The notes beneath the pieces are model-generated. The model ran no database searches. It was not told the DNA's origin and saw nothing but the letters and a program-made list of their open reading frames with translations. Shown one piece after another: positions 1,925 through 64,000 of a stretch of DNA of 64,000 bases; within the stretch, counting starts at the first letter, position 1, and each line of letters begins with the position of its first letter. The DNA lies in assembly GCA_030265395.1 (NCBI GenBank), contig JARFYF010000053.1, positions 26,725,592 to 26,789,591 on the forward strand. The letters are read 5' to 3'. A program made the position numbers and the translations under genes. The DNA comes from Rhina ancylostomus (Eukaryota).

Positions 1925-3285
1925 CATAGAATCAGAGAATTATACAGCATGGAAACAGGTCGTTCAGCCCAACTCTTCCCCACTTACCAATGGGCACCCT
2001 GCCATATTAATCCCAATGCCCACCATTTGATCCATGGCCCTCTAAGCCTAAGCATTTCATCTAAACACTTCTTAAATAGTGNNNNNNNNNNNNNNNNNAC
2101 ACTCTCTCAGGCAGTTCATTCCAGGTACTTATCACTCTGGGTGAAGATGGTCCCTCTCAGATTCACTCTAAATGTCTTACCTGAAACCTATGTCCTCTAG
2201 TTTTATCTACCTCTGATATGGGGAAAAGTTTCCTGCAGTCTATGTTGTCTCCAACCCTCATAATATTGAAAAGCGCAACCACGTTGCCTTTTAACGTCCT
2301 CTGCTCCAGGGAAAACAGACCCAGCCTCTCCAGTCTCCCCTCATAACTGAAATGCTCCATCCCTGGCATCATCCTGGTGAATCACCTCTGCATCCTCTCT
2401 ATCACTATCACATCCTTCCAATACCTTGGTAACCAGAACTGCAAGCAGTACTCCAGCTGTGGTCTGACCAAGGTTTTATAAAGTTTCAGCACAACCTCAT
2501 TACTTCTGTATTCAATGCCCCATCTAATGAACCACATTCCTAACCATGTTATCTCCCTGTGTTGTCACCTTTGAGGATCTATGGACTTGTACTCCGAGGT
2601 CACTCCGTTCTTCAATAATCCCCAGGACCCCACCATTCATGGTACATGTCCTAGCCTCATTAGTGCTCCGAAAATGTATCAACTCACACTTGTCTGGATT
2701 AAACTCACACCTGTCATTTTTCAGCCCATGTCAACAATCCATCGATATCTCTCTGCAGACTAGGACTAACTTTTGCATTACCAACAACTCTTCCAATCTT
2801 TATGTCATCTGTGAACTTGCTGATCATGCCTCCTACATCCACATCTAAATTATTTATGTACAATACAAAGAAAAAGGGCCCCAGCACCAATCGTCATGGG
2901 ACGCCACTAGTCACAGGCATCCTATTGCAAAAATAACCGTCTACCATCATCTTCTGTCTCCTATGGTCAAACCAGTTTGCCAACTTACCCTGGATCCCAT
3001 GAGTTCTAACCTTTTGAAACATTCTTCCAATGTGGGACCACATTAAACATTTCACTAAAGTCCATGTAAATCACATCAACTACTCTCCCCTCATCGATAC
3101 ACTTTCTTACCTCTTCAAAGAATTCAATCAAATTGGTCAGAGAGGATCTGCCTTTGACAAAGCCATGGTGGCTATCTCTGATTATTCCCTTCCTTTCCAA
3201 GTGATCATTAATCCTTTCCCTCAGAATTGTTCCAGTATCTTCCTTGCCACTGATGTTAGGCTCACTGGTCTATAGTTACCAGTCA
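1925..3285 (-). mobile_element. CR1-clade (HER1-like) LINE, ORF2 RT plus C-terminus plus tail, internally deleted and frameshifted
   Basis: ORF pieces IIRDSHHGFVKGRSSLTNLIEFFEEV..DEGRVVDVIYMDFS and SYEGRLERLGLFSLEQRTLKG..TRGH are typical CR1 ORF2. Confidence 0.88.
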
Positions 3286-6959: not shown

Positions 6960-7480
6960 AGTCATGGAGGCATAAAGTCATAGAGTTGTACAGCACAGAA
7001 ATGGATCCTTTAGCACATCACATCCATGCCAACCATTTTTTTCATCTACACCATGCCTGTTAACCTACATTAGGACCATATCCTTCTATGCCTTGCCTAT
7101 TTAAAAGTCTGGCTAAGTGCCTCTTAAACATAATAATTGTAACATTCCACCACCTCCTCTGGCAATGCATACCAAATATCTTCCACTCTCCACTTACCCC
7201 TCAGGTCCCCTTTAAAACTCCTTTCTCTCACCTTTTTGATGTCCCTGCCTTGGGGAAAACAGATTTTGACTATCTACCCTGTCTGTGCCTTTCATAGTCT
7301 TATATACTTCTATCAGATCATCCATCGGCCTCCTTCGCTCCAGGGAAAACAAGCCCAGCCTATCTAATTTCTTCCCAAAGCTAAAGTTCTCCAATCCCAG
7401 TGATATCTTGATGACTCTCCTATGTGCTCTTTCCAGTACAATCAAATCTTTCCAATAGAGTGACGTCCAGAGCAGTGTCC
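6960..7480 (-). mobile_element. CR1-clade LINE 3' fragment
   Basis: LERAHRRVIKISLGLENFSFGKKLDRLGLFSLERRRPMDDLIEVYKTMKG plus a gactctatgact tail. Confidence 0.85.
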
Positions 7481-8689
7481 TGCCATTTCACAGGAAGTCC
7501 CTTGGACCCCACAAAACTCACAACCATAAAGCCCACAATGACCTTGTATGCAATGGGTTGGGGGAAATTTCTTATCATTGATTTTAAATCTGCCTCCTCC
7601 TAACCCAAGTTATCATGAGGTGGGTGGGTTAAGAGAGTTATAATTTTTTAAATGTGTATGCTGAGTTTATTTAAGCCGTTGATTTAGGGATCCTCAAATG
7701 CTTGAGATCCAAAATGCAGCCAAACCCCCAGACAGAGTAGTCGGTTCCTGGTTGTGTGCGTGCACAGCCGATCTCAACCAGTATCGGCAAGAGGATCTTC
7801 AATTCTACACCTCATGTTAGTGAGAGGAAAATCATTCAAGTTCTACCTCCTGATCACTATCAACCTATTCCAATATATGTGGATGTTGGATGACAGTAGT
7901 ATCCATCCCCTATCTTCAAATGTCTTGCAAGCATTCACCATGAAGCATCAGATGTGAATAAAGACCATAACGGTGATGTACCACAAGGACACATGTGCCC
8001 ATGCACAATTTCTTCAGGAGAGCTGGGATGCAGAAAACCAAAACAAGCCCTTACATTTAGCAGATGGCATCATATATTAATATTGCACTAAAATCTTCAT
8101 CTTTGGACTACTGAGAAATTGGTGTGATGGGAAGTCATACAGTCGTCCCATCGGGGTTAATTTCCTGATTGTTAATTTTCTCAGCCAAAATGGTAATAAA
8201 GGTATTGCAATTTTCCTTCATCCCTGGGTGGCAGGAACCTCAGGCAAACTCCTTAACTTGATCTACATGCAGAGGGTGACGATGGGGCAGAAGACAGCTA
8301 TAAACCTAGCACAGGGGAACTATCTCAGTAGTCAAGATTGGATTATCCAAATCAGGTTTCTTGTTTGATAGAAATAAATTATATGGAAATAACTGAAAAT
8401 TTATTTGGAGATGTTTTGCTTCTGAATAGTGTATCTTTAACGTCTGGCATGGAAGTAAATTATCAAAGTGGATAGTCACATACTACACAATGATCATGGG
8501 GGTCAGCTGCTGCTGTCCAATGGTCATTCTGTTTGGCTGGTATGGAGTATTATGACAACAGGGGATGGTTAAACATGGTACGGTGATCGAAGTAGTGAGT
8601 TGTATGTTGCACAATAACTTATCATCCTCTCTGTCATGCCATTCAACAACAGAAATCTTTCCCAGGTGAAATTCCAGACACATAGTGGA

Positions 8690-25996: not shown

Positions 25997-26039
25997 GTGC
26001 TTGGGATAACTCGAGAGCAAAAAAAAAGCCTCATTGATA

Positions 26040-26532
26040 ATGGAGGTATTCGAAACCAACCCTTACTACTTCACAGACCAGCGGTTCTTCGACAATGAAA
26101 ACCTCTTCCCTTCGCGCCTGCAGGGGTTTGAGCAGCCGGTGTACCAGGAGCGGCTGGGGACGGGTCTGGGCGCGGATGCCAGGGCGCTGGAAGCTGGCCT
26201 GGAGGAACACGTGNNNNNNNNNNCAGCAGCAACTCCAGCAGCAGGACTGCCGCGGCCAGTGCTTGCTGTGGGCGTGCAAGACCTGCAAGAGGAAATCCGT
26301 GACCTTGGACAGGAGAAAGGCAGCGACCCTGAGGGAGAAGAGGAGGCTGAAGAAAGTGAACGAGGCGTTCGAGGCTCTGAAGCGAAGTACTTTGTTGAAT
26401 CCCAATCAGAGACTGCCCAAAGTGGAAATCCTTCGCAGCGCCATTCAGTACATCGAGAGGCTCCAGGCTCTGCTCAGCACTTTGAACCAACACGACAAGT
26501 TGCACTACAGTGGCAGCAACACGCGTCGGGGG
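26040..26532 (+). CDS. MYOG: Myogenin exon 1 (N-terminal activation domain, Cys-rich basic region, bHLH); 3' boundary approximate because the donor lies at or in the N-gap
   Basis: ATG at 26040 gives [18 protein letters not shown]...EEHV. After a 10-N gap the frame reads [89 protein letters not shown]. The ME.FETNPY N-terminus and the [30 protein letters not shown] residues are myogenin-type rather than MyoD/Myf5/Myf6-type. Confidence 0.96.
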
Positions 26533-27613
26533 GCNNNNNNNNNNNNNNNNNNNNNNNNNNNNNNNNNNNNNNNNNNNNNNNNNNNNNNNNNNNNNNNNNN
26601 NNNNNNNNNNNNNNNNNNNNNNNNNNNNNNNNNNNNNNNNNNNNNNNNNNNNNNNNNNNNNNNNNNNNNNNNNNNNNNNNNNNNNNNNNNNNNNNNNNNN
26701 NNNNNNNNNNNNNNNNNNNNNNNNNNNNNNNNNNNNNNNNNNNNNNNNNNNNNNNNNNNNNNNNAATGAAAAAGTTTTTTTTGTCTCGCTGGTCGTTGTG
26801 GCTTTTTCAGTGGCTGGTACAGCTTGTCTGGTGAGGTTGGAACGAATTTCATGCTAATAGCGGCCCCAGGGTCCCCTGGCGCATGACAACTTGTCCGGTC
26901 TTTTGTTTAAAGCGTTTTCGTTGTTTGAATGGGGTATTCCTCTGCAGAAACTTCCAGTATTATCGTTCGCCAATGATAGTAGAAACTGGCCGAGACCCTA
27001 ATTACCTTCAATCACTGTTCTTGAGAAAGGAGGCGTTAATATTAATATCAAGGTGAAATTCTGGAGAGGTGTTAATAGAGGGCTGGATAGGTTTCAGTCA
27101 AGAATTGAACATTATCTCCATAGGTTAATGGGGCCAAATTAAATAGTTTAAACAGAAGTGGGACAAAAACTCTGGCTTGAAAAAATATTGTAAAACAATG
27201 TGTTGGTTTAAGGAAGCGGAGGGTAAAGGAAAACCGTAAAGGATTTCCATGGACTTCGGGACTTACCGAAATGTTCTTCATTCATTTTACCGAAAGAAAG
27301 AAATGTACAAAGCTCGGCGAGGAATGGGCCAGTGATTTTTTTGGCAGACGGTAAATGGTCACTGTGCCCTTGAGGCTCGATACAGGCGCGGGGGAAGGAT
27401 CCCGAGTTAAATCCTCATCTATGCGAGAGATGTCGCGGGAGGAACAGGTGTTTTGCGGAGTTTTAGGAACAACTATAGAGAGAGAAAATAAGAAACTTGA
27501 ATTATAATCGCTCTGCATGTGCGGAAAACATTTGAAGCAGAGGCAGCTTGGACTTTTACTATAAATACCCTCTGTTAATCCATTCTTGCTCATTTTTTCC
27601 ATTGTAATTGTAG

Positions 27614-48159: not shown

Positions 48160-51068
48160 TGGGGATTTTATTACAGAAATGAAAGAAAGGCGCTTTATTT
48201 TTTTCAAATGTATGATTAAATATGGTCATAATTTATGGAGAAGAGTATGAAGCAAGTTCACATTAAATGATGTATTGTGTAATCAAAGAGATTTTAAACT
48301 GAATTATGGTATATGTATGTTAGTAGGTGAGGTTGTGAGCAGTGTTGTCAGATGGAACAAAATTGGACTTTGGTGAGACACAACAGACCCACTCCAGTTT
48401 TTCTGGTTAACTGCTTAAAACTTTGATCAACATGCTTCCTGAGCTGTTTATTCATAATCCACCTACCTGAAAAGATTATATTTTAACAAAAATGTTGCAA
48501 TGTTGTACTTCAAACAAAAGCAGCTGGGTGAATTGTACTGAATTGCCACAAGAAACCAAGTATCTCTTAAAATTAGTGTGCCTGTTAATAAAACAAGTAT
48601 TATGTAAACTCAATGCGCTGCGTTGACAATAAATTTGATTAATTTGAGCACAGATACTTCTCAAAGATTGCCCATATATTCAGAGGGAAAATGTTTAAAA
48701 ACAAACACCATATTCAATTAACATAAAATAACATGTATTTTCATATATTTTACTAGAACATTCAAATCTAGCTATTAAATTATTTTGAGTACGAAATATG
48801 GAGGAAAAAAGTTATTCAATGCTTTCCAATAATTAGAATAAGTTATTTTTAGGCATTTTATTAAGTATGCTTTCCCTCCTGAACTGAGAAAGGAATTGGA
48901 GACCATTTTCAAATTTACTAGACAGCCGAAAATTGGATTTAGAAGATTCTGATGACATTGTCCAAAATGCATTGGATAGATTCAATAAAACTTTGGGTTA
49001 CAATATCACAGCTGTTACTAAGATAAGTATTTATGACTTCCTATTCTTTTTGGACTTCAATATATAATGTCCTTCACAGGCTGAAAATTATAACCAGAGC
49101 TTGGTGTCAGATCATTCTGTGGTCCTGTACATTCTCCGCACGTCACCTAATGCTGAACTCATTAAATAGGAAGAAGTTGTTACTTTATTTTTGCGGCACT
49201 TGGGAATTAAAATGCAAAAATGAGTACAATTAATTATTGTACTTGTAAAACACTCATGTCTGAGAAACATTTTTGACTACTTTCCACAAAGCACTGAGTT
49301 AAAAAGATGTACACTTCAACAGCTTTGAAGGACTGTATATAATATATATATATTTATCAATTTATTAAAATGAATTTTATAAAATAGGATTAACATTTTG
49401 TTAACCTTCATAAAAGTTATCCACGGTCAACAATTTTCAAGGGATAGTCACAAAGACTCATGGAACAGAAAGTGCCAGTGCTTAGCCACTTTAAAGGAGC
49501 ATGTCTAAATTCCTCCTGAAATATCTGGTAAGGTAAAGTGTTACTTTGTTTTCCTACTTTGGGAAATCGTTTCCCTGTGTCCCAGGTAGTCTGGGTGTAA
49601 TCTGTTTAACAGCACTCATCTGTCACATTTCATCAATTATTAGATCTGTTATATCCACTTCAAATAGGGAAAAAGACAAAAAGCTTTGATTCTGGTTTTA
49701 GAAGTATATATTTAAAAGTGGGAATCACAACAGGAAATACTTAGTTTAAACAATACAAGGCATCTTTTGATAAAATGCTAATAATTTTCCTTTGATCCTA
49801 AACTTTCTCAATATTTGAAGGCTTTGCAGTAGAAACCACCCATTTCAAAATATTGCGAATTGTTGAATTAACATCAGAGCTTATTGTTGTATCTGAAATC
49901 AGAATGATCAGCACTAGAGGTTAAAAACGTGCGAATGCTGTGCTGCTTTGCTGCCTCGTAAGTAATATTCTAAAAAGGATCCTTTGCAATCAGGTCTGTA
50001 CATTCAATAATGAATGAGGGGAAATAAGGAAGAGAGAAAACTATTCAAATCTGCAGTTTAAGAAAGTAAATTGCAATGAATGCAGCAAATAATGTGCAAG
50101 ACTCAGANNNNNNNNNNNNNNNNNNNNNNNNNNNNNNNNNNNNNNNNNNNNNNNNNNNNNNNNNNNNNNNNNNNNNNNNNNNNNNNNNNNNNNNNNNNNN
50201 NNNNNNNCAGAAGTCCTAAAAACAAAGGAAAAAAACCTTGAGTAACCAACTACAAGGCTAATTTGAAAACCAGCTGTATTCATACCAGGAGTCAGAAAAT
50301 ATGTTTTTCAATGATCAGTGGAACAAGAGACTTTGGGAGCTGGAACTGCTGCCAATTGGAAAATCAATGCATTACTTATAGGAGGACTCAGTTTAACAGT
50401 TGCCATTTCCACAATATATGAAAAATAATGAATAAAGCTATCCAGTCATCATATCATGTGCTACAATTGGCATGGTAGACACATATTTGCACACATGATT
50501 CGTTGAAAATGAACAAATGCTCATCAAATGGAACAAGATGTCCTTGAAATATAACAGCAAGATAAAAATGGCAGCAACATCAATAATTAAGACAGCATTT
50601 AGGTTGAATCGATATTCTTCAAATTCCATTAAATTATCTAAAAAATGCTGTTACAGTCAGCCATATTTATATACATTTACATAAAAAAACTTGCATTACT
50701 TCATGGCCATACGTTTACATACAGCAGATTATGATACACTTGAAAAAAAATACTACAACCAATGAAACTACAACTGTACTTGAGGTTAAAAGTTGACAGA
50801 ATTACTACATACTGTACTTGGATTATAACAATATTACAGTGAAACATCTCAAAAATGAAACCCTAAAATTCTCTACCAGCATTGTAAAGGATAATCCAAT
50901 AAAGAAAGTCATTACTAGATAAATTAAATGATAGTGTAAGTATTCTGTTGAACGTAAGTAAAACTATTGCCCATTTATATTCAACATACATTCAAACCAT
51001 CTATGCCTTTCTAAGTTTTGTGCAACAGCATTTGACCTCCATTGTTGATCTCACAGAGATGTAGTGGA
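48160..51068 (-). other. Probable long AU-rich PPFIA4 3'UTR; end uncertain
   Basis: Repeat-poor AT-rich stretch after the terminal stop. Minus-strand AATAAA candidates at 49361-49366, 48194-48199 and 48167-48172. Pumilio-type UGUAUAUA at 50668-50675. Confidence 0.5.
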
Positions 51069-51118
51069 TTATTCCCGAAAGGCAGCGAGCATATGTCCAT
51101 ACAAGTAGTGGGAATGCA
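51069..51118 (-). CDS. PPFIA4: Liprin-alpha-4 terminal exon, alternative C-terminus (coding only when the VRTYSC exon is skipped)
   Basis: ttgtttcctccag|(V)HSHYLYGHMLAAFRE*, in frame with the phase-1 end of exon 54281-54455. Closely matches the human PPFIA4 end as I recall it (AHSHYLYGHMLSAFRD), which supports the alpha-4 paralog call. Confidence 0.9.
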
Positions 51119-52191
51119 CTGGAGGAAACAAGTGATCAATCATTAATTATATTCTTTCACATCAGGCCTTCTCCTTTCCCCACCTGAAGGTGTTATTCCT
51201 TACTAGAAGATGTTTTACCACAGCAGTCTCCTATGCTTTTCTCAGATGGCCATGCTACCTTGACATAAAAACATTTGGAGTTTATTCAGTAGTTGCAGGC
51301 TTGCTCAGTTCTGCTCTNNNNNNNNNNAGCACCTCACCAAAGGTCAAAATGCTACAAACAAAATAAACAACACACGATATCTATGCTCTTCTTTTATGGG
51401 CAAGAGGGATAGGATGGACCCGGTCAAAAAAAAATTATACATCAACTTCAAATAAAATTCAATTTAATGTTGAAACATTAAAGTCATTAGGAGGTCTAAT
51501 TCATGCTTACTGGTGGAGTTGCAAACCAGTAAACTAGTGGTGCTTTTTAATCGGTCATAGCAAAAGAACTTCAGCTCTCTAAGCTTGTCCAAATAACAAA
51601 TTTGAAAGAGTGCAATAGATCAGCATACACAATCTCATTCTAGCAAATTCAGACACTGCCAGACAAAATGGGTGGGTCAAGGAGATGGACTGGTAGGAAA
51701 GAATGGGAGAGGATCTGTAATCCTGATGGTGTACGAGAGACAGGTTTACAGTATATGTTACTCATTGGATACTTATTCAGTTCAGTCTGTGGCCCAGTGT
51801 AATTCCAGATTTATCCTCAAGTGAGAGTTACAATGGCTCCACCACACTAAATGGCCCATGCTAGTTGCATTGCAAGCCTAATTTTTTTCAATTACATATG
51901 GATAAAGTCAAGAAGATTAAAAATAACATATTTAGAGCTGGAAAGAGGCAGCTCTGTGACAACCCTTACAATATCATTCCCACACGTTCAATTTGAAGAT
52001 AAGGATTATCTTTCTGGAACAAAAATTCTGCCACAAATTCTACCTGTAACTGCATTTAACTTTCCATGTAACTTTCCATGCACTGCACCGAAGTTCCCTT
52101 ACTTCATTGTTTTATCCTATAGAAATGGGAAACAAAGAGAAAGTTACGTACTCACCGGTAATCACCGCTGACTCCCTGACTGATCTAGATG

Positions 52192-52250
52192 TCAGCAGGA
52201 GTATGTGCGTACTGTTGACGTGTCTAACCTCTGTGTCCCTGATGTACCAA
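52192..52250 (-). CDS. PPFIA4: Liprin-alpha-4 C-terminal cassette exon, coding part (whole exon 52156-52250); ends in PDZ ligand VRTYSC
   Basis: ggaaacacag|(V)GTSGTQRLDTSTVRTYSC*, then 36 nt of UTR and a ccg|gtgagt donor at 52155. Confidence 0.93.
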
Positions 52251-52529
52251 CTGTGTTTCCATCAAGACAACAAAAAAATCACACAACATGCAGTAAGTAT
52301 TGCAAGCCATTCCTGCAGATTAGCACAAAGATAAGTAGCCACACTTCAAACGTTTGCAAAGGATCTCTGCTGTAAAGTCAACTCTGGTTCTCATTCTACT
52401 TTCTGGTATCTGTGTTTTCTTTCCTTTCCAAACTTACTCAGTCACCAAGCTTTTGTATGCAAATGGAAAATGATGAAACAGGTTGTCCTGGAATGCAGAC
52501 CTTCCGGGTCAGCCCACTCCAAGTCCTTT

Positions 52530-53085
52530 GTACCTGCTTTCACTAATTCCCCACAATATCATTACAGGACTTGACACAGTTATTGCAGAGTTGGTATTTC
52601 CCTGGCCAAGGTGTCCAGAACCAAGGGTCACAGTCCAAATAGAAAGAGTTGGCCATTCAGGATGAAAAGAGATTTTTTCACCTAGGGGTAGTGAATGTTT
52701 GGATTTCCCCAACCAAGGTAGGAGTGGAGTCTGAGTATATTCATGTCAGAGATCAACAGGCTTTTAGATATTAAGGTCATTGCCACTGACCTTGGTGAAA
52801 GAAAGCTGCCCATAGAGACCTAGGGAAATCTGTGGTGTGGACTTCCTCATTGCGTTTGTCACTTGCTGTCAGGTGTCAATTCAAAGCAATCCCTGGAGCC
52901 AACAGTTGTGATGGATCAAGTTCAGAGGGTGATAGAGTTTTTGATGTTAAGGAAACCAGTGGATATGGGGTTAGTGCAGGAAAGTGGCACAGAGGTAAAA
53001 GAGCATCCATGATCTGACCAAATTTTGTAGTCAGCATGAAGGGTCAAATAAACTATTCCTGTTTCTATTTCCAATGTTCTTATGC
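52530..53085 (+). mobile_element. CR1 LINE 3' fragment in a PPFIA4 intron
   Basis: C-terminal remnants (ITGLD.V..E.VFP..RT.GHS.QI) and tail ctattcctgtttctatttccaatgttcttatg. Confidence 0.65.
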
Positions 53086-54280
53086 TCATTCAATTCAATG
53101 TCCAACTGTACAGTAGAAATTACATGAAACTTCACAGACTGAGGTATTGGCACTTAGTACCTACAAGCAGAGTATCTGTTCTGAAGTCTTGAAACAGACA
53201 GTGATGGAAAACACTGGAGAGCAGCACTATATTAAAAAAGCAAATCCCTCAAATCCAGTCCAACTAGGTAGGATGCAAATTATTTGGCCAACAACTTTCT
53301 AGGAAAAGCTACTGGAAATTACAATCAAATAAATTGAGCTTTAAACGTAATCTGCCTTCATCCTTTTACAACTGTGCAGGACAATTTCCATGATTCTTTC
53401 CACATGCTTTTTAAGGACCTTCCATTTAGATGGTCTGCTCAAAGAACCAACTGTTGCTGCTTAGTTCTGGGATGGGAAAAGTAGATGAATAAAGAATATT
53501 AATAGCTCTCCACTACCAGTTGGCTCAGAGGCAATGACTTCAGATAGTTCCACTCTGACCTAACCAATCACAGTCCAAGGCCAAGAAAGTATATCTGATA
53601 CAGCAATAATTTTGTGTTAGGCAATGGAGTTTTAACACTTCAATGAAGTAAAAAGGACTTTTCTTTATAAATACTTCAAAACCAAACTAGAAACTATTCA
53701 CTTTTCTCAATAAGAAAAGAGCAAGTGCATGAGCTCCATATCTTTTAGTGTTCAGAATTTTATTTGAACATAAATATTTCACAGTGTTCAACAAAATGTT
53801 TTGTTTTTGAACAAGATACAAATTGCTCTTGGTTAGCTGCACCATGTGAAATCTTAATTTATGATATACAATCAGGGTTAGATATTAATATCTTGCCATG
53901 ATTGTCAATTAGTTCTGTACACTTCAACACTCAAGCAAAGGTTTTATATTTCTGTTGCCAATGACATTCAGCCATACAACAAGGACTGTTGTACTTCGAA
54001 TCTGACAAATGCTCCAGTTGGCACTGAGGGAAGTCTGGGTTCTATCCNNNNNNNNNNNNNNNNNNNNNNNNNNNNNNNNNNNNNNNNNNNNNNNNNNNNN
54101 NNNNNNNNNNNNNNNNNNNNNNNNNNNNNNNNNNNNNNNNNNNNNNNNNNNNNNNNNNNNNNNNNNNNNNNNNNNNNNNNNAAAGCATGTAACCAGTTAC
54201 AACATGGATCAGTGATGCTCCCTTTGTGAATTGGTAACTGACATGCGATTGAATATGACTGAGAGTTTGTAAGAATTTAC

Positions 54281-54455
54281 CTTCTGGTTGAATTTTCTTC
54301 GGCTGCACTGATGGAGCTGGGGTGGACATTGCTGTAACCCTGAACCCTGGAGGTAGTGTTTCTGTCGACCCCGCCATCATTGTTATCCCATGGACCTCTC
54401 GTGGCCGAAAGCGCTTTCGCCATGATGGTGCACGCCTGAAACTTTTGTCATCACC
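54281..54455 (-). CDS. PPFIA4: Liprin-alpha-4 exon (175 nt, ends in phase 1)
   Basis: aattacag|GDDKSFRRAPSWRKRFRPREVHGITMMAGSTETLPPGFRVTAMSTPAPSVQPKKIQPE-G|gtaaat. Confidence 0.95.
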
Positions 54456-55007
54456 CTGTAATTACAGGAGAATGAAACACTGACACTATGAGAACAGATT
54501 TAGGAACAAGACTACTTTATGAACTTTAACAGTTAACACATAATTGTGGAGAAATTCCTACCCTACCACTCTTTCTCTGACTTTGTATTCACCCCTCAGT
54601 TCCCAAGACTGGATCTCACTTGATTAAGTCTTCAGTTATTCTCTGGGTATCTTGTGTCATTCTCCAAAGTACCTGCAGAGGCACAATTTAGCTGCCTCTG
54701 TTACCATCATCGAGTAAGCTAGATCTATATAAGGCCATCAACTGCTATAAGCCTAAATTTNNNNNNNNNNNNNNNNNNNTCCTTCCTTTTCCCCTCATAC
54801 CCTCTCTGAGCTCATAGTGCCAATGAGATCCACTTCCTGCACACAACACGATGTCCATTAAACTGCTGCCCACCTAGTTATTAGCATTGTAAATAGTATC
54901 CTCTTCTCAGTGACTTTCCTCATTGCTTTCAAAAATGTCAGCATCACCAGCTCTCAAGATATTCATTCATGATTCTTTTAATCCGACAAATGAAGGAAAA
55001 ACTAGAG

Positions 55008-58290: not shown

Positions 58291-58547
58291 TTAAAAGTTG
58301 CAGTTTGCTAATACAGATTTACCTATGTTTGATCAAAGAATTAACACTGACAGTGAGCTGAGGAGAACGAGGAGGGATAATGCAGCAGGTATTCAAACGC
58401 AGCTCCTTCTGATGGGATGAACTGTTCTCCTCTCCCTTGAATCCAGCTCTTGGCAACTGCAGGCCAACAGCTTAACATAACCAGACAACACAAACTTGAC
58501 ATCTAACCTTTCCCTCAGGGAATTCTGAATGAATCCCTAATACTCAC

Positions 58548-58616
58548 ATCATCCAACTTCCGCTCAGTTCCTAAGGCCAACAGGTTGTTGAATTCACGCT
58601 CCAAGACCTGCCTTGC
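58548..58616 (-). CDS. PPFIA4: Liprin-alpha-4 exon (69 nt)
   Basis: ctctcttgtag|ARQVLEREFNNLLALGTERKLDD|gtgagt. Confidence 0.95.
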
Positions 58617-58720
58617 CTACAAGAGAGTTATACTTAAAATTTAATTTTCAGTTCAACAGTGGTGCAATTACTCAGAAATTCAGGAAATTAAGGAAGCCAA
58701 GGTATCATTGCATAGGTTAC

Positions 58721-58896
58721 CTGAGTATTTTGTGTAGGAATTTGTAATAATAATGCCAGACTGCTGTAATCAAAGTTTTCATCGAGGGCTATCAAGGCTC
58801 CATGTACTCCACTTTCAACTATGTTGTTTGCATACTCACGAAGTCCAATAGATTGCACCCAGTGAATGACTTGGTCGTTAGTCCACACCAACACAT
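58721..58896 (-). CDS. PPFIA4: Liprin-alpha-4 exon, SAM domain 3 (176 nt)
   Basis: ggctag|(D)[58 protein letters not shown]|gtaacc. Confidence 0.96.
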
Positions 58897-59987
58897 CTAG
58901 CCAAAGTCAAACACAGGTAGTTGATTCACAGTAAAAGAAATGCAATTTGCACCATCCAGGATTTGCTTTAGAGGCAATTACATCAGTTCTGGAAACAGCC
59001 ATTACTGTTGTGTGTTCAGTACCACCGAAAATTTCTGAATAATGCACAGTGAATGGCTTTGCTGAAGATTATTTCAGGCTGATTTACATTGTTTTTTTAA
59101 GAAATATGATTCAGTACTGCAACAGTACAAATTAGATGCTTCGTGCCTCAGGAGACATAGCACAGTATACTAATCTCTCTAATTGGACAGGCATACCAGA
59201 AAGTAGCATCAGATGCCACAGGTGAATTAACAACACAGAAAAAATACATCCAATGGGAGCACAGCTCCTCTTTGTCTGCATTTCAAAGAAGCTTTAATTA
59301 AAATTACCTTTAAAGAATAAAAACATATTGCCTCCCTGTGGAAACCCTTTTTTCAGTCTCTATATTCAAATAGAGCAGCTGACCCTATTACAAAGATGAC
59401 TTGGTGGTTTGGTATTCAAATTCAAAATCAATGCTAGCTATAGTAACTTCAATGCAACAGTTCACCCTGTGACCAGAACTTGACTGTGCAGTTAAAGATC
59501 TAAAAGATTCATCTAGAAATGTAATCTGATAATTTCTGTGAGAGCTAAGAAATAAACAAATTATTCTTTCAATACACACAAGGAATGCTTCAAACTGAAA
59601 GCACTGCTGCAAAACCTAATTATTCTACTAGGTTCACCCAATCAGTTAATTAAAAATGGTTATATGACTAATTGATCACTATCTTACATTTTATGTGCAC
59701 TGCAGATCCCAATATACTGCCACATTAATAACTGAATAACTGAGTAAAATGGCACTTGGATCACAAAATGCAATAAAAATGTTTTTATGAAAGAAAGATT
59801 CTGAAAGTACAGCTCAGATGTGTAAAGTATTTAGCAAGGCAGTCTTCCTTTAGATTCTCTGGAGTTCATCAATTGATCTGAGCTGAGGACAGCTCACAAA
59901 GTATGGCTGACCTTGCAAGTGCGCAGATCCATAGATAGAAAGTCAGTAGATAACAAGGACTTCACTTAAGTAAGTGCACACTCGACC

Positions 59988-60080: not shown

Positions 60081-60799
60081 TTGAGGTTTTGCTGACTAAC
60101 CTAATAAACTATCCATTCAATGAAAAGCAGTGACATGTATCCATACATATGTGTGATGCATATGCCCATGTGTCTGCATCTCCACACATATCATATTTAA
60201 TTACAAGCAATCTACAAAGAGAAAACCAAATAATATCATGCACCTGAAGGCTTGAAAGAAAAAATTGTAAATCCTTCCTGCTCAAAAGTTTTGCGGCTCA
60301 ATTTCCTTCACAAAAATTGAGCCAATTTATCTTCAAAAAACACATTTCCATTCAGCAAATTAGCTGAAACACCATCAAAAGAACTGGGAATATGAAAGTA
60401 ACTCTCTAGTCCAAAATGATTCACTTAATTAAGTTTCTAGAAATTCTAAATAATCTATTAGTCTGGTCCAAATTCAAACCATCACCCTGTCATAGGAGGG
60501 CAGTGCTGAACAATTCCTTTGCACCCATCCAACTTCACTTGTGAGATCCACTGGTCAATCTTTGAGTAGCACTCGGTTGTTCTGTACCACAGGCAATTTG
60601 AGCGTCCATAATAAAATGGGATTCATCCTCATCATTACATGAAAGGGAACAGAAGAGAATACTGAAATAAACAGTGGCATGGACTTGTACAAACAATGTG
60701 GAGAAAATTACACTGACACTTTAGTACTAAGTTTTCCTTCAAATACAATTTTGTTTTTCAACAGGGAAACTGAATGACAGCAATATTTCTTACAAACTA

Positions 60800-60949
<150 letters not shown>

Positions 60950-61362: not shown

Positions 61363-62534
61363 TACTGGGATAAATGTACTTCTGGAATAAAAGTGCACAA
61401 ATCAATTAATTCAAAAGAACACATTTCATTCAATACCCACATTGTATAAAAAAGTGAATAAACAACATATTTAAATTTTGACCCCTTGCTTNNNNNNNNN
61501 NNNNNNNNNNNNNNNNNNNNNNNNNNNNNNNNNNNNNNNNNNNNNNNNNNNNNNNNNNNNNNNNNNNNNNNNNNNNNNNNNNNNNNNNNNNTGACCCCTT
61601 GCTTGTGATGTAGATCTAAAGGAAGGGTATAGTTTATATTTGCACAAGGATTTCTGAACACTACTAGTTTGAGAAATCTGACATTGTTGTTGAGCGGGAC
61701 AATAATCTCCATTATAAATGGTGAAAATACTGTCTCAACAATAAAGCACAGAGTGATGTGAATAATTCTAATACAACACATCTTTTGGTGGAAATATCAG
61801 TATATTCATTAGCTATCCCTAAAATAGGCTGTAAAAAAAAGTCATGATTTTTAAGACACAAATGCATTACGGTCTCTACCCTCTCATACATTGCTTACAA
61901 TTCACCCATTAAACTCCCCATCCCCTTTCATAATGCTTCATTTATTCATTTCCCCCCCTCATGGTCTGTCAATGAGACGCTGCTTCAAGTGGCACTGTGA
62001 CTGAAACTACTAATTGGACTCAGTTAGTATTTACATTTATTTAATCAGGTGTTCCAGAGGAATAGTTGGAGAAAAATAATTATCAAATACTTGGACAGAG
62101 CGGCACTTAAAACATATTTGCAAGAAAACAAAATCACTATTTTCCCTTAATTTTTGTGGTCATCTCTTCAATTTAACTAAGCACAATCCAACAGACAAGT
62201 AGGAAGTTCCACTTGTATGTGGTTGAAACAGAACTAGGATGATAACACAGATCAGACATACTCTCTCTGCCATTACTGACTTTATACTGGTTACAGGTTA
62301 CTACAGTGTTACAATGGAAAACTGCAACACACTAAGTCGTGTGGGAAAGAAATATATTTGTCTTCAAGAAAATAGCATGCACATGGACATTCAAGTTTGA
62401 AACAAAGTCAATACTCCCTTTTACCAGATTTTTTTGCCTTCCCACATTTAAACTTAGTTACTACAGACTGTCCAGGAGATAACTTAACTGGAAGGCTCCT
62501 TTCAAGGGAGTACTGAAGAAAAAATGGAAACTTG

Positions 62535-63185
62535 TCTAGAGGTCCAAAGATCCCTTAAGGTGACAACAAAGGTAGATAGGGTGGTGAAGAAGGTATATGG
62601 GATGATTGACTTCATTACCCAGGGCATGGAATATAAGAGAAAGGAAGTCATGAAACAGCTTTGTATAACATTGGTTAGGACACAGCTGGAATATTGTATG
62701 CAGTTCCGTTCACCACACTATAAAATGGGCATGATGGTGCTGGAGATTCACCAGGATGTTACCCAAGATGGAACATTTCAGTTATGAGGAGAGACTGAAT
62801 AAGCTGGGTTTGTTTTCCTGGGAGCAGAAGCGGCTCAGGGATGACCTGATATAGAAATACAAAATTACAAGAGGCATAGATGGGAAGAAACTATGCCTCT
62901 TCCCATGGCAAAATATCAAAAGCCAGAGAACGTAGCTTTAAGGTACAGAGTTGGAGGTTTAGAGAGGATCTGAGGGAGAGTACCTCCAGTCAGAGGATGG
63001 TTGAAGTCTGGATTGCACTACCTGAGAGGGGGGTGGTGGTAAAAAGTTACTCTCGCAACTTTTGGGAAGTACCTGGATGAACATTTGAATCACCTCGGAC
63101 CAAGTACTGTTAAATAGCATTACTATAGCTAGCATTAACATATTGAAGGGCCTATTTCTGTGCTCTTTGACTCTGTGACTATGAC
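62535..63185 (+). mobile_element. CR1 LINE ORF2 C-terminal fragment with tail
   Basis: VQRSLKVTTKVDRVVKKVYGMIDFITQGMEYKRKEVMKQLCITLVRTQLEYCMQFRSPHYK plus a gactctgtgactatgac tail. Confidence 0.88.
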
Positions 63186-63234
63186 CTCTTCCAATGAATA
63201 AGCTGGCAATTATAAGTAAAGCATAACAGTTTAC

Positions 63235-63410
63235 CGATGAAAGCTATCAACCATCTTCAGATGCATTCGCAGGTCTTTCTTGGTCAAATGGTCAAGCATT
63301 CGTGCATCCACCAAGCACTCCATGAAATAGCTGCGATACTGGGGCAATCCAAGGCTGGGAAGCCATTCATTACCAATCCACTCGTGGTTCATATCTCCAT
63401 AAGCCAGGGT
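63235..63410 (-). CDS. PPFIA4: Liprin-alpha-4 exon, SAM domain 2 (176 nt)
   Basis: Reverse strand: ctcttaccag|[60 protein letters not shown]|gtaa. This is the hallmark liprin-alpha SAM2 sequence. Upstream exons lie beyond the window. Confidence 0.96.
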
Positions 63411-64000
63411 CTGGTAAGAGGTACAGTACAGAAGCAGTCATTTCTGATGGAACCATATTGGGCTTTTCATCTGAGAATGGGGGATGAACTCTCTCAGTCA
63501 CATACACAAATTCATATTATAAAACTGTTAACAGCAATACATAAAAAAGTAACCAGATTAAAAGATGGATTCTGGTTCAAGTATCTATTTATAGGAAGGT
63601 TTTGGAAATAGCCAACCTCTGGATATCTCATATTTCTGTAAGATGATCTAAGATCGTAATTCAAAAATTTTGGGGTAAAAGATTACAAAGAGAAATATAC
63701 CCGGTTATTGAACCAGCATGCAGAAGCACCAAGCATTTGCCAGTATAGAGAAACATCCTAACAAATCTAATGTTTCATGTCATATTAAGACCAGATACTC
63801 TCCCCACAATCAGAAGGGCCTGAGCTGTAGCTTAAAACCTACATGCAATTAATTGGTTAAAAATTACAACCATGCTTAAAACCACATATGAACAATGGAG
63901 ATCAGCTTGTCTTCTAGAAGCCTCTTAATGGATGCCTTCAAATTTAGTGAAACCAACAAGTGAAATTTTCTAGTAAAATGGAAAAGCACAACACTGACAA

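Follow-up and report, generated by a model that had tools for sequence, protein, structure and literature searches.

A likely C-terminal splice switch of liprin-α4 (PPFIA4) in the ray Rhina ancylostomus, with both tails annotated from sharks to humans

Liprin-α proteins end in the PDZ-binding motif VRTYSC, as stated in the available text of PMC13311821. According to the accessible parts of PMC8044993 and PMC13311821, this motif is bound by GRIP1 through its PDZ6 domain and is removable by splicing; the former adds, citing Zurner and Schoch (2009), that liprin-α without the motif may arise by alternative splicing. An excerpt of PMC3678157 describes the major liprin-α4 splice variant as being without the PDZ motif (citing Zurner 2011). 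For mammalian liprin-α1, the available portion of PMC5679597 reports that binding by LNX1 (PDZ2) is abolished when YSC is altered, and that of PMC13311821 that expression of a PDZ-less liprin-α1 form lowers AMPA receptor trafficking. Mammalian PPFIA4 is already known to switch its tail in this way, and existing gene annotations include both tails in species ranging from sharks to humans. The locus described here, from the ray Rhina ancylostomus, compares closely with the mammalian PPFIA4 variants (O75335; RefSeq human isoforms 8, 9 and 10), the same two tails following the same common exon with 13/16 and 15/19 residues identical and nothing but the species clearly differing. It also resembles the PDZ-less form of liprin-α1 (GRIP1 PDZ6, PDB 1N7F; LNX1 PDZ2), in which splicing likewise removes VRTYSC and GRIP binding, as far as the available texts state; unlike that form, α4 substitutes a tail conserved from shark to human, and none comparable was seen in 120 liprin-α2 proteins.

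In the 64-kb window (the whole stretch of DNA that was analysed), a liprin-α gene on the minus strand is represented by its 3′ end. Judged from its sequence, the gene is PPFIA4, encoding liprin-α4. The last common coding exon (exon A; Table 1) is 100% identical to liprin-alpha-4 of Pristis pectinata, and the named matches consist of liprin-α4 and models closely akin to it; other liprin-α exons in the same genome (G000: C22, C29 and C67) reach 64, 61 and 52%, and represent distinct paralogues. C29 is liprin-α2, the last ten residues of C22 are those of human PPFIA1 (Table 1 of PMC5679597, available portion), and C67 is assigned to α3 by exclusion of the others. The C-terminal SAM domains of the liprin-α family were found by Pfam on the window exons 63234-63437 and 58721-58897, while the N-terminal coiled coils (LIP-1) were found in the shark orthologue P0145, that part of the gene lying outside the window. 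In addition, a myogenic bHLH gene with Basic and HLH domains (Pfam) lies at 26224-26490 (+). This gene, at about 26 kb, is probably MYOG. PPFIA4 and MYOG are genomic neighbours, and its presence nearby is consistent with the PPFIA4 identity. It spans about 26010-26900 (+), is convergent with PPFIA4 and is broken by runs of N. Open frames at 2166-3269, 7215-7487 and 62488-62784 were also noted in the window, which in our estimation resemble decayed LINE fragments.

Table 1. Features of the PPFIA4 3′ end, in window positions
Feature	Position	Strand	Basis and remarks
PPFIA4 coding exon region (SAM domain), ends approximate	63234..63413	-	tblastn 100% to P0005 residues 1002-1061; Pfam SAM_1 E 2e-13
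PPFIA4 coding exon region, ends approximate	60791..60900	-	tblastn, P0005 about 1062-1093
Pair of PPFIA4 coding exons for third SAM domain and linker, ends approximate	58518..58897	-	tblastn, P0005 1094-1153 and 1153-about 1175; Pfam SAM_2
Exon A, last common coding exon	54281..54455	-	175 nt = 58 codons + 1 nt, phase 1 end; ag/gtaaat; exact ends in contig X1
TGCATG hexamer, 42 nt upstream of exon B	52287..52292	-	motif scan; function inferred
Exon B, cassette exon	52156..52250	-	95 nt, ag/gtgagt; 19-residue tail to VRTYSC; contig X1 shows both junctions
TGCATG hexamer, 74 nt downstream of exon B donor	52077..52082	-	motif scan; function inferred
Exon C start	51069..51118	-	3′UTR with B included; 16-residue HSHY tail and stop with B skipped; 13/16 to human O75335
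DNA-level conserved block, tail and about 110 nt of 3′UTR	50961..51118	-	lower end set by contig end; 2 differences/158 nt in X4
3′UTR of last exon, running on beyond	50212..51068	-	unbroken in X1 record 1 as far as edge of stretch compared

The splice sites of exons A, B and C are all canonical, and the acceptor at 51118 is good and pyrimidine-rich. Translated through exon B, exon A reads ...IQPE-VGTSGTQRLDTSTVRTYSC and then stops, exon B encoding the liprin-α C-terminal PDZ ligand VRTYSC, with 36 nt between its stop and its own donor. Translated directly into exon C, exon A reads ...IQPE-VHSHYLYGHMLAAFRE before the stop (the HSHY tail). When 3,927 minus-strand AG positions were scanned for identity to the human tail, 51118 scored 13/16 and the runner-up 6/16; the frame of exon C is therefore not a chance one. 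Re-translation reproduced the exon coordinates, the phases and both peptides that an earlier note on this DNA had given for the PPFIA4 end, and its description of VRTYSC as the liprin-α PDZ-binding motif recognized by GRIP agrees with the accessible parts of PMC8044993 and PMC13311821. The open frame of exon A also continues past the donor into the intron (54280-54182, minus strand) until an N gap, and the ray models P0023, P0133 and P0152-P0155 terminate in a similar intron-derived tail; this is possibly a third PDZ-less ending, or else an artefact of the gene models. A short interspersed repeat fragment, matching many unrelated contigs, lies in the intron at about 52930-53025.

Contigs of relatives were compared with the window in four runs (X1-X4) of 24 listed, none of which is registered as RNA. 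Record 1 of X1 joins 54455-54281, 52250-52156 and 51118-50212 free of gaps, and its intron skips, 52250/54281 and 51118/52156, are exact with CT..AC ends. Given that both introns are gone at their exact ends, this contig is a spliced product, although it was automatically typed as DNA. The junction 52156>51118 recurs in X4 record 17; X3 record 10 has it too, but bears a small indel, and the X2 contigs cover no exon. Thus, of the three junctions for which the earlier note had proposed a check, the two that include exon B (54281>52250 and 52156>51118) appear exactly in X1 record 1, and the direct skip 54281>51118 appears in 0/4 runs of relatives, whose contigs drop minor variants and whose tissues are unlabelled. 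Since contigs retain the major path only, this count does not imply that skipping is absent, and the public gene models of other species make use of the skip junction in Rhina ancylostomus likely. In mammals the major PPFIA4 form is PDZ-less according to the excerpt of PMC3678157, whereas the contigs of relatives show the included form, a difference that may be unreal as the tissues are unlabelled.

Among 184 proteins from a liprin-α4 search, a set of redundant, non-independent isoforms from a limited range of species and of predicted gene models, the PDZ tail closes 105, the HSHY tail 45, and other sequences the remaining 34. Both tails are annotated in at least three elasmobranchs (Mustelus asterias, Amblyraja radiata and Scyliorhinus torazame), as well as in Amia, Astyanax, Mastacembelus, macaque and human, and further HSHY ends occur in Heptranchias, Mobula birostris, Pristiophorus, Cetorhinus and Carcharodon. 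The near-identical human tail that the earlier note had given is indeed that of Swiss-Prot O75335 (P0162), which ends in AHSHYLYGHMLSAFRD and matches the ray at 13 of 16 positions. The tail of exon B is identical between ray and human at 15 of 19 positions, and exon A at about 65%. A core, HYLYG..L.AF, is invariant in 45/45 HSHY tails, and the final two residues are missing in nine perch-like fish proteins. The HSHY tail was found in none of eight Pristis pectinata isoforms, all of which carry the PDZ tail (among 15 of 45 cluster members listed), in none of nine salamander proteins, six of which carry the PDZ tail, and in none of 120 liprin-α2 proteins; in this comparison of α4 with α2, the tail is specific to α4. 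Because the tail is kept in sharks, rays, bony fish and primates, the two-tail arrangement is, on this distribution, at least as old as the common ancestor of living jawed vertebrates, a dating that is a minimum because the matches included no α4 from lamprey or chimaera. The proposals that the alternative frame is kept in other cartilaginous fishes and that the arrangement is of jawed-vertebrate age both hold on these data.

We consider it highly probable that the ray gene produces the VRTYSC PDZ end when exon B is included and, as is likely, the HSHY 16-mer when it is left out, splicing thereby toggling PDZ binding of the GRIP1/LNX1 type. Inclusion of exon B would add the class II PDZ ligand VRTYSC to liprin-α4, and binding of ray PPFIA4 to GRIP1 or LNX1 is predicted by the identity of the motif with that of mammalian liprin-α. 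With exon B skipped, the last exon would be read as the 16-residue HSHY tail, devoid of the PDZ ligand. The main role of this tail would most likely be that of a clean end for the PDZ-less protein, under a mixture of protein and RNA constraint. For nonsense-mediated decay the limit is a stop 50-55 nt before the last junction. As the stop of exon B stands only 36 nt before that junction, the included mRNA likely escapes decay and both mRNAs are likely stable; an included-form contig with this spacing exists (X1). Furthermore, exon B is flanked by two TGCATG hexamers, at -42 and +74, which are the only ones on the sense strand in 50900-54500. The hexamer occurs at 0.32 per kb across the window, and at that density the chance of having one within 100 nt on both sides is near 0.001, although the arrangement was noticed post hoc. 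We presume these hexamers to be RBFOX-type motifs, and control of exon B by RBFOX-type proteins through them is a lead rather than a result.

The earlier note had proposed a partner for the tail, and we hold it tentatively possible that the HSHY tail, as a short amphipathic helix, is itself a binding motif, recognized by a separate partner or docking on the SAM domains, such that splicing would exchange one partner for another. Consistent with this are the 13/16 ray-human identity of the tail against about 65% for exon A, the unaltered core in all 45 tails and the restriction of the tail to α4 relative to the 120 liprin-α2 proteins. Moreover, 5/5 missense changes in ordinary models have BLOSUM62 >= 0, versus 57/113 random single-base changes (about p 0.03), but with a nonsense change and the odd model P0094 counted the ratio falls to 5/7 (about p 0.2). 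Exon B, on the other hand, is equally conserved, the absence of the last two residues from the perch-like fish proteins speaks against a reader of the free C-terminus, and conservation at the DNA level runs beyond the stop of the tail; the latter two observations make a dedicated partner a less compelling conclusion. Structure prediction by AlphaFold for shark P0017, aligned to 29 relatives, was uninformative on this point (mean pLDDT 51.5, SAM domains badly folded, tail helix 956-968 at pLDDT about 31). Overall, that the α4-specific tail does something itself is doubtful, and the fuller proposal, in which it is an undescribed helical motif and an RBFOX-controlled exon swaps GRIP/LNX for a second partner in brain versus heart or muscle, is rather unlikely.

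The DNA-level conservation would be accounted for if the tail were mostly a by-product of a last-exon start conserved as an RNA element for splice or 3′UTR control, which we likewise rate as improbable, short of dismissing it. The X4 contigs differ from the window at 2 of 158 nt in 50961-51118, about 110 nt of which follow the stop. Exon A, by comparison, has 11 differences in 96 nt (Fisher p 0.0006), and the further 3′UTR has 26 in 370 (p 0.005), although these are single low-depth contigs, a different one for each part, with 17 difference rows not visible and the block ending where the contig ends. The 50 coding nt of exon C alone reach only p 0.06-0.22 against exon A, and the one visible change within the tail, at 51087, is synonymous. 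No RNA fold signal was detected in 50961-51118 (z 0.40), the block has no Rfam match (the sole sub-threshold match, at 53869-53993, is attributed to chance), and no second copy of it was found in the same genome. Part of the constraint on exon C may still act on RNA. Finally, exon B could always be included in this species, leaving the HSHY frame a silent relic. Inclusion junctions alone in three of the four runs, skipping in none, and the PDZ tail on all eight Pristis pectinata isoforms among the matches listed would fit such a reading; however, the frame is unbroken and the same as in the skip isoforms annotated for other rays and sharks (P0016, P0123, P0145), and contigs lose minor variants, and we judge the relic very improbable.

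Modest in significance, these results show that a splice switch familiar from mammals extends, in all likelihood, to cartilaginous fish; what they add is the 36-nt spacing between stop and donor, the RBFOX-type hexamers flanking exon B, and about 160 nt of conservation at the DNA level. The HSHY tail, with which the reference human liprin-α4 ends, is an ancient one that goes undescribed in searchable papers: neither the HSHY peptide string nor a study of the tail was found in the searchable literature, with subscription journals and supplements lying outside the search, and a PDB sequence search with exon B gave 0 matches. The available parts of 10.1101/2024.08.10.607237, PMC13281805 and PMC12374974 mention PPFIA4 without exon B, and a zebrafish ppfia4 microexon appears in them. 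If the tail has a partner, experiments on ‘liprin-α4’ depend on the end of the construct, and if the helical-motif reading is true, the main human form carries an unstudied interaction site.

The paralogues in the ray genome share part of this layout. As in PPFIA4, the PDZ exons of C22, C29 and C67 are separate exons ending in RTYSC and a stop, with a donor-like GT (putative donors) 6, 32 and 13 nt after the stop, respectively. This similarity in three paralogues suggests that the layout with a stop in the second-last exon predates all four paralogues. No HSHY-like frame was found in the 40-50 kb downstream of these exons, where 12,252, 2,906 and 12,820 bases are N, and the comparison suggests that only in α4 did the beginning of the last exon become a conserved tail. 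Separately, 13 of the 120 liprin-α2 models (turtles and ducks; P0242, P0240 and similar) share a short alternative non-PDZ tail, for which no convincing counterpart was seen in C29 among 3,141 AG sites. Two TGCATG hexamers also lie immediately upstream of a further PDZ exon, that of G000:C22, probably PPFIA1 (about 10473080-10473055). An origin of exon C as a frameshifted duplicate of a PDZ exon was considered and rejected, exon C being absent from the 25 best matches of a DNA profile of the four PDZ exons. Pairwise, its resemblance was suggestive for C29 (3/1000 shuffles and 1/913 acceptor-like windows) and C67 (16/1000 and 9/913), but not for C22 (553/1000 shuffles) or the gene's own exon B (191/1000). 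Thirteen intron bases before the exon C acceptor (51135-51123) are identical to those before the liprin-α2 PDZ-exon acceptor (C29, about 31084262-31084250), which is probably a common branch-point-like motif.
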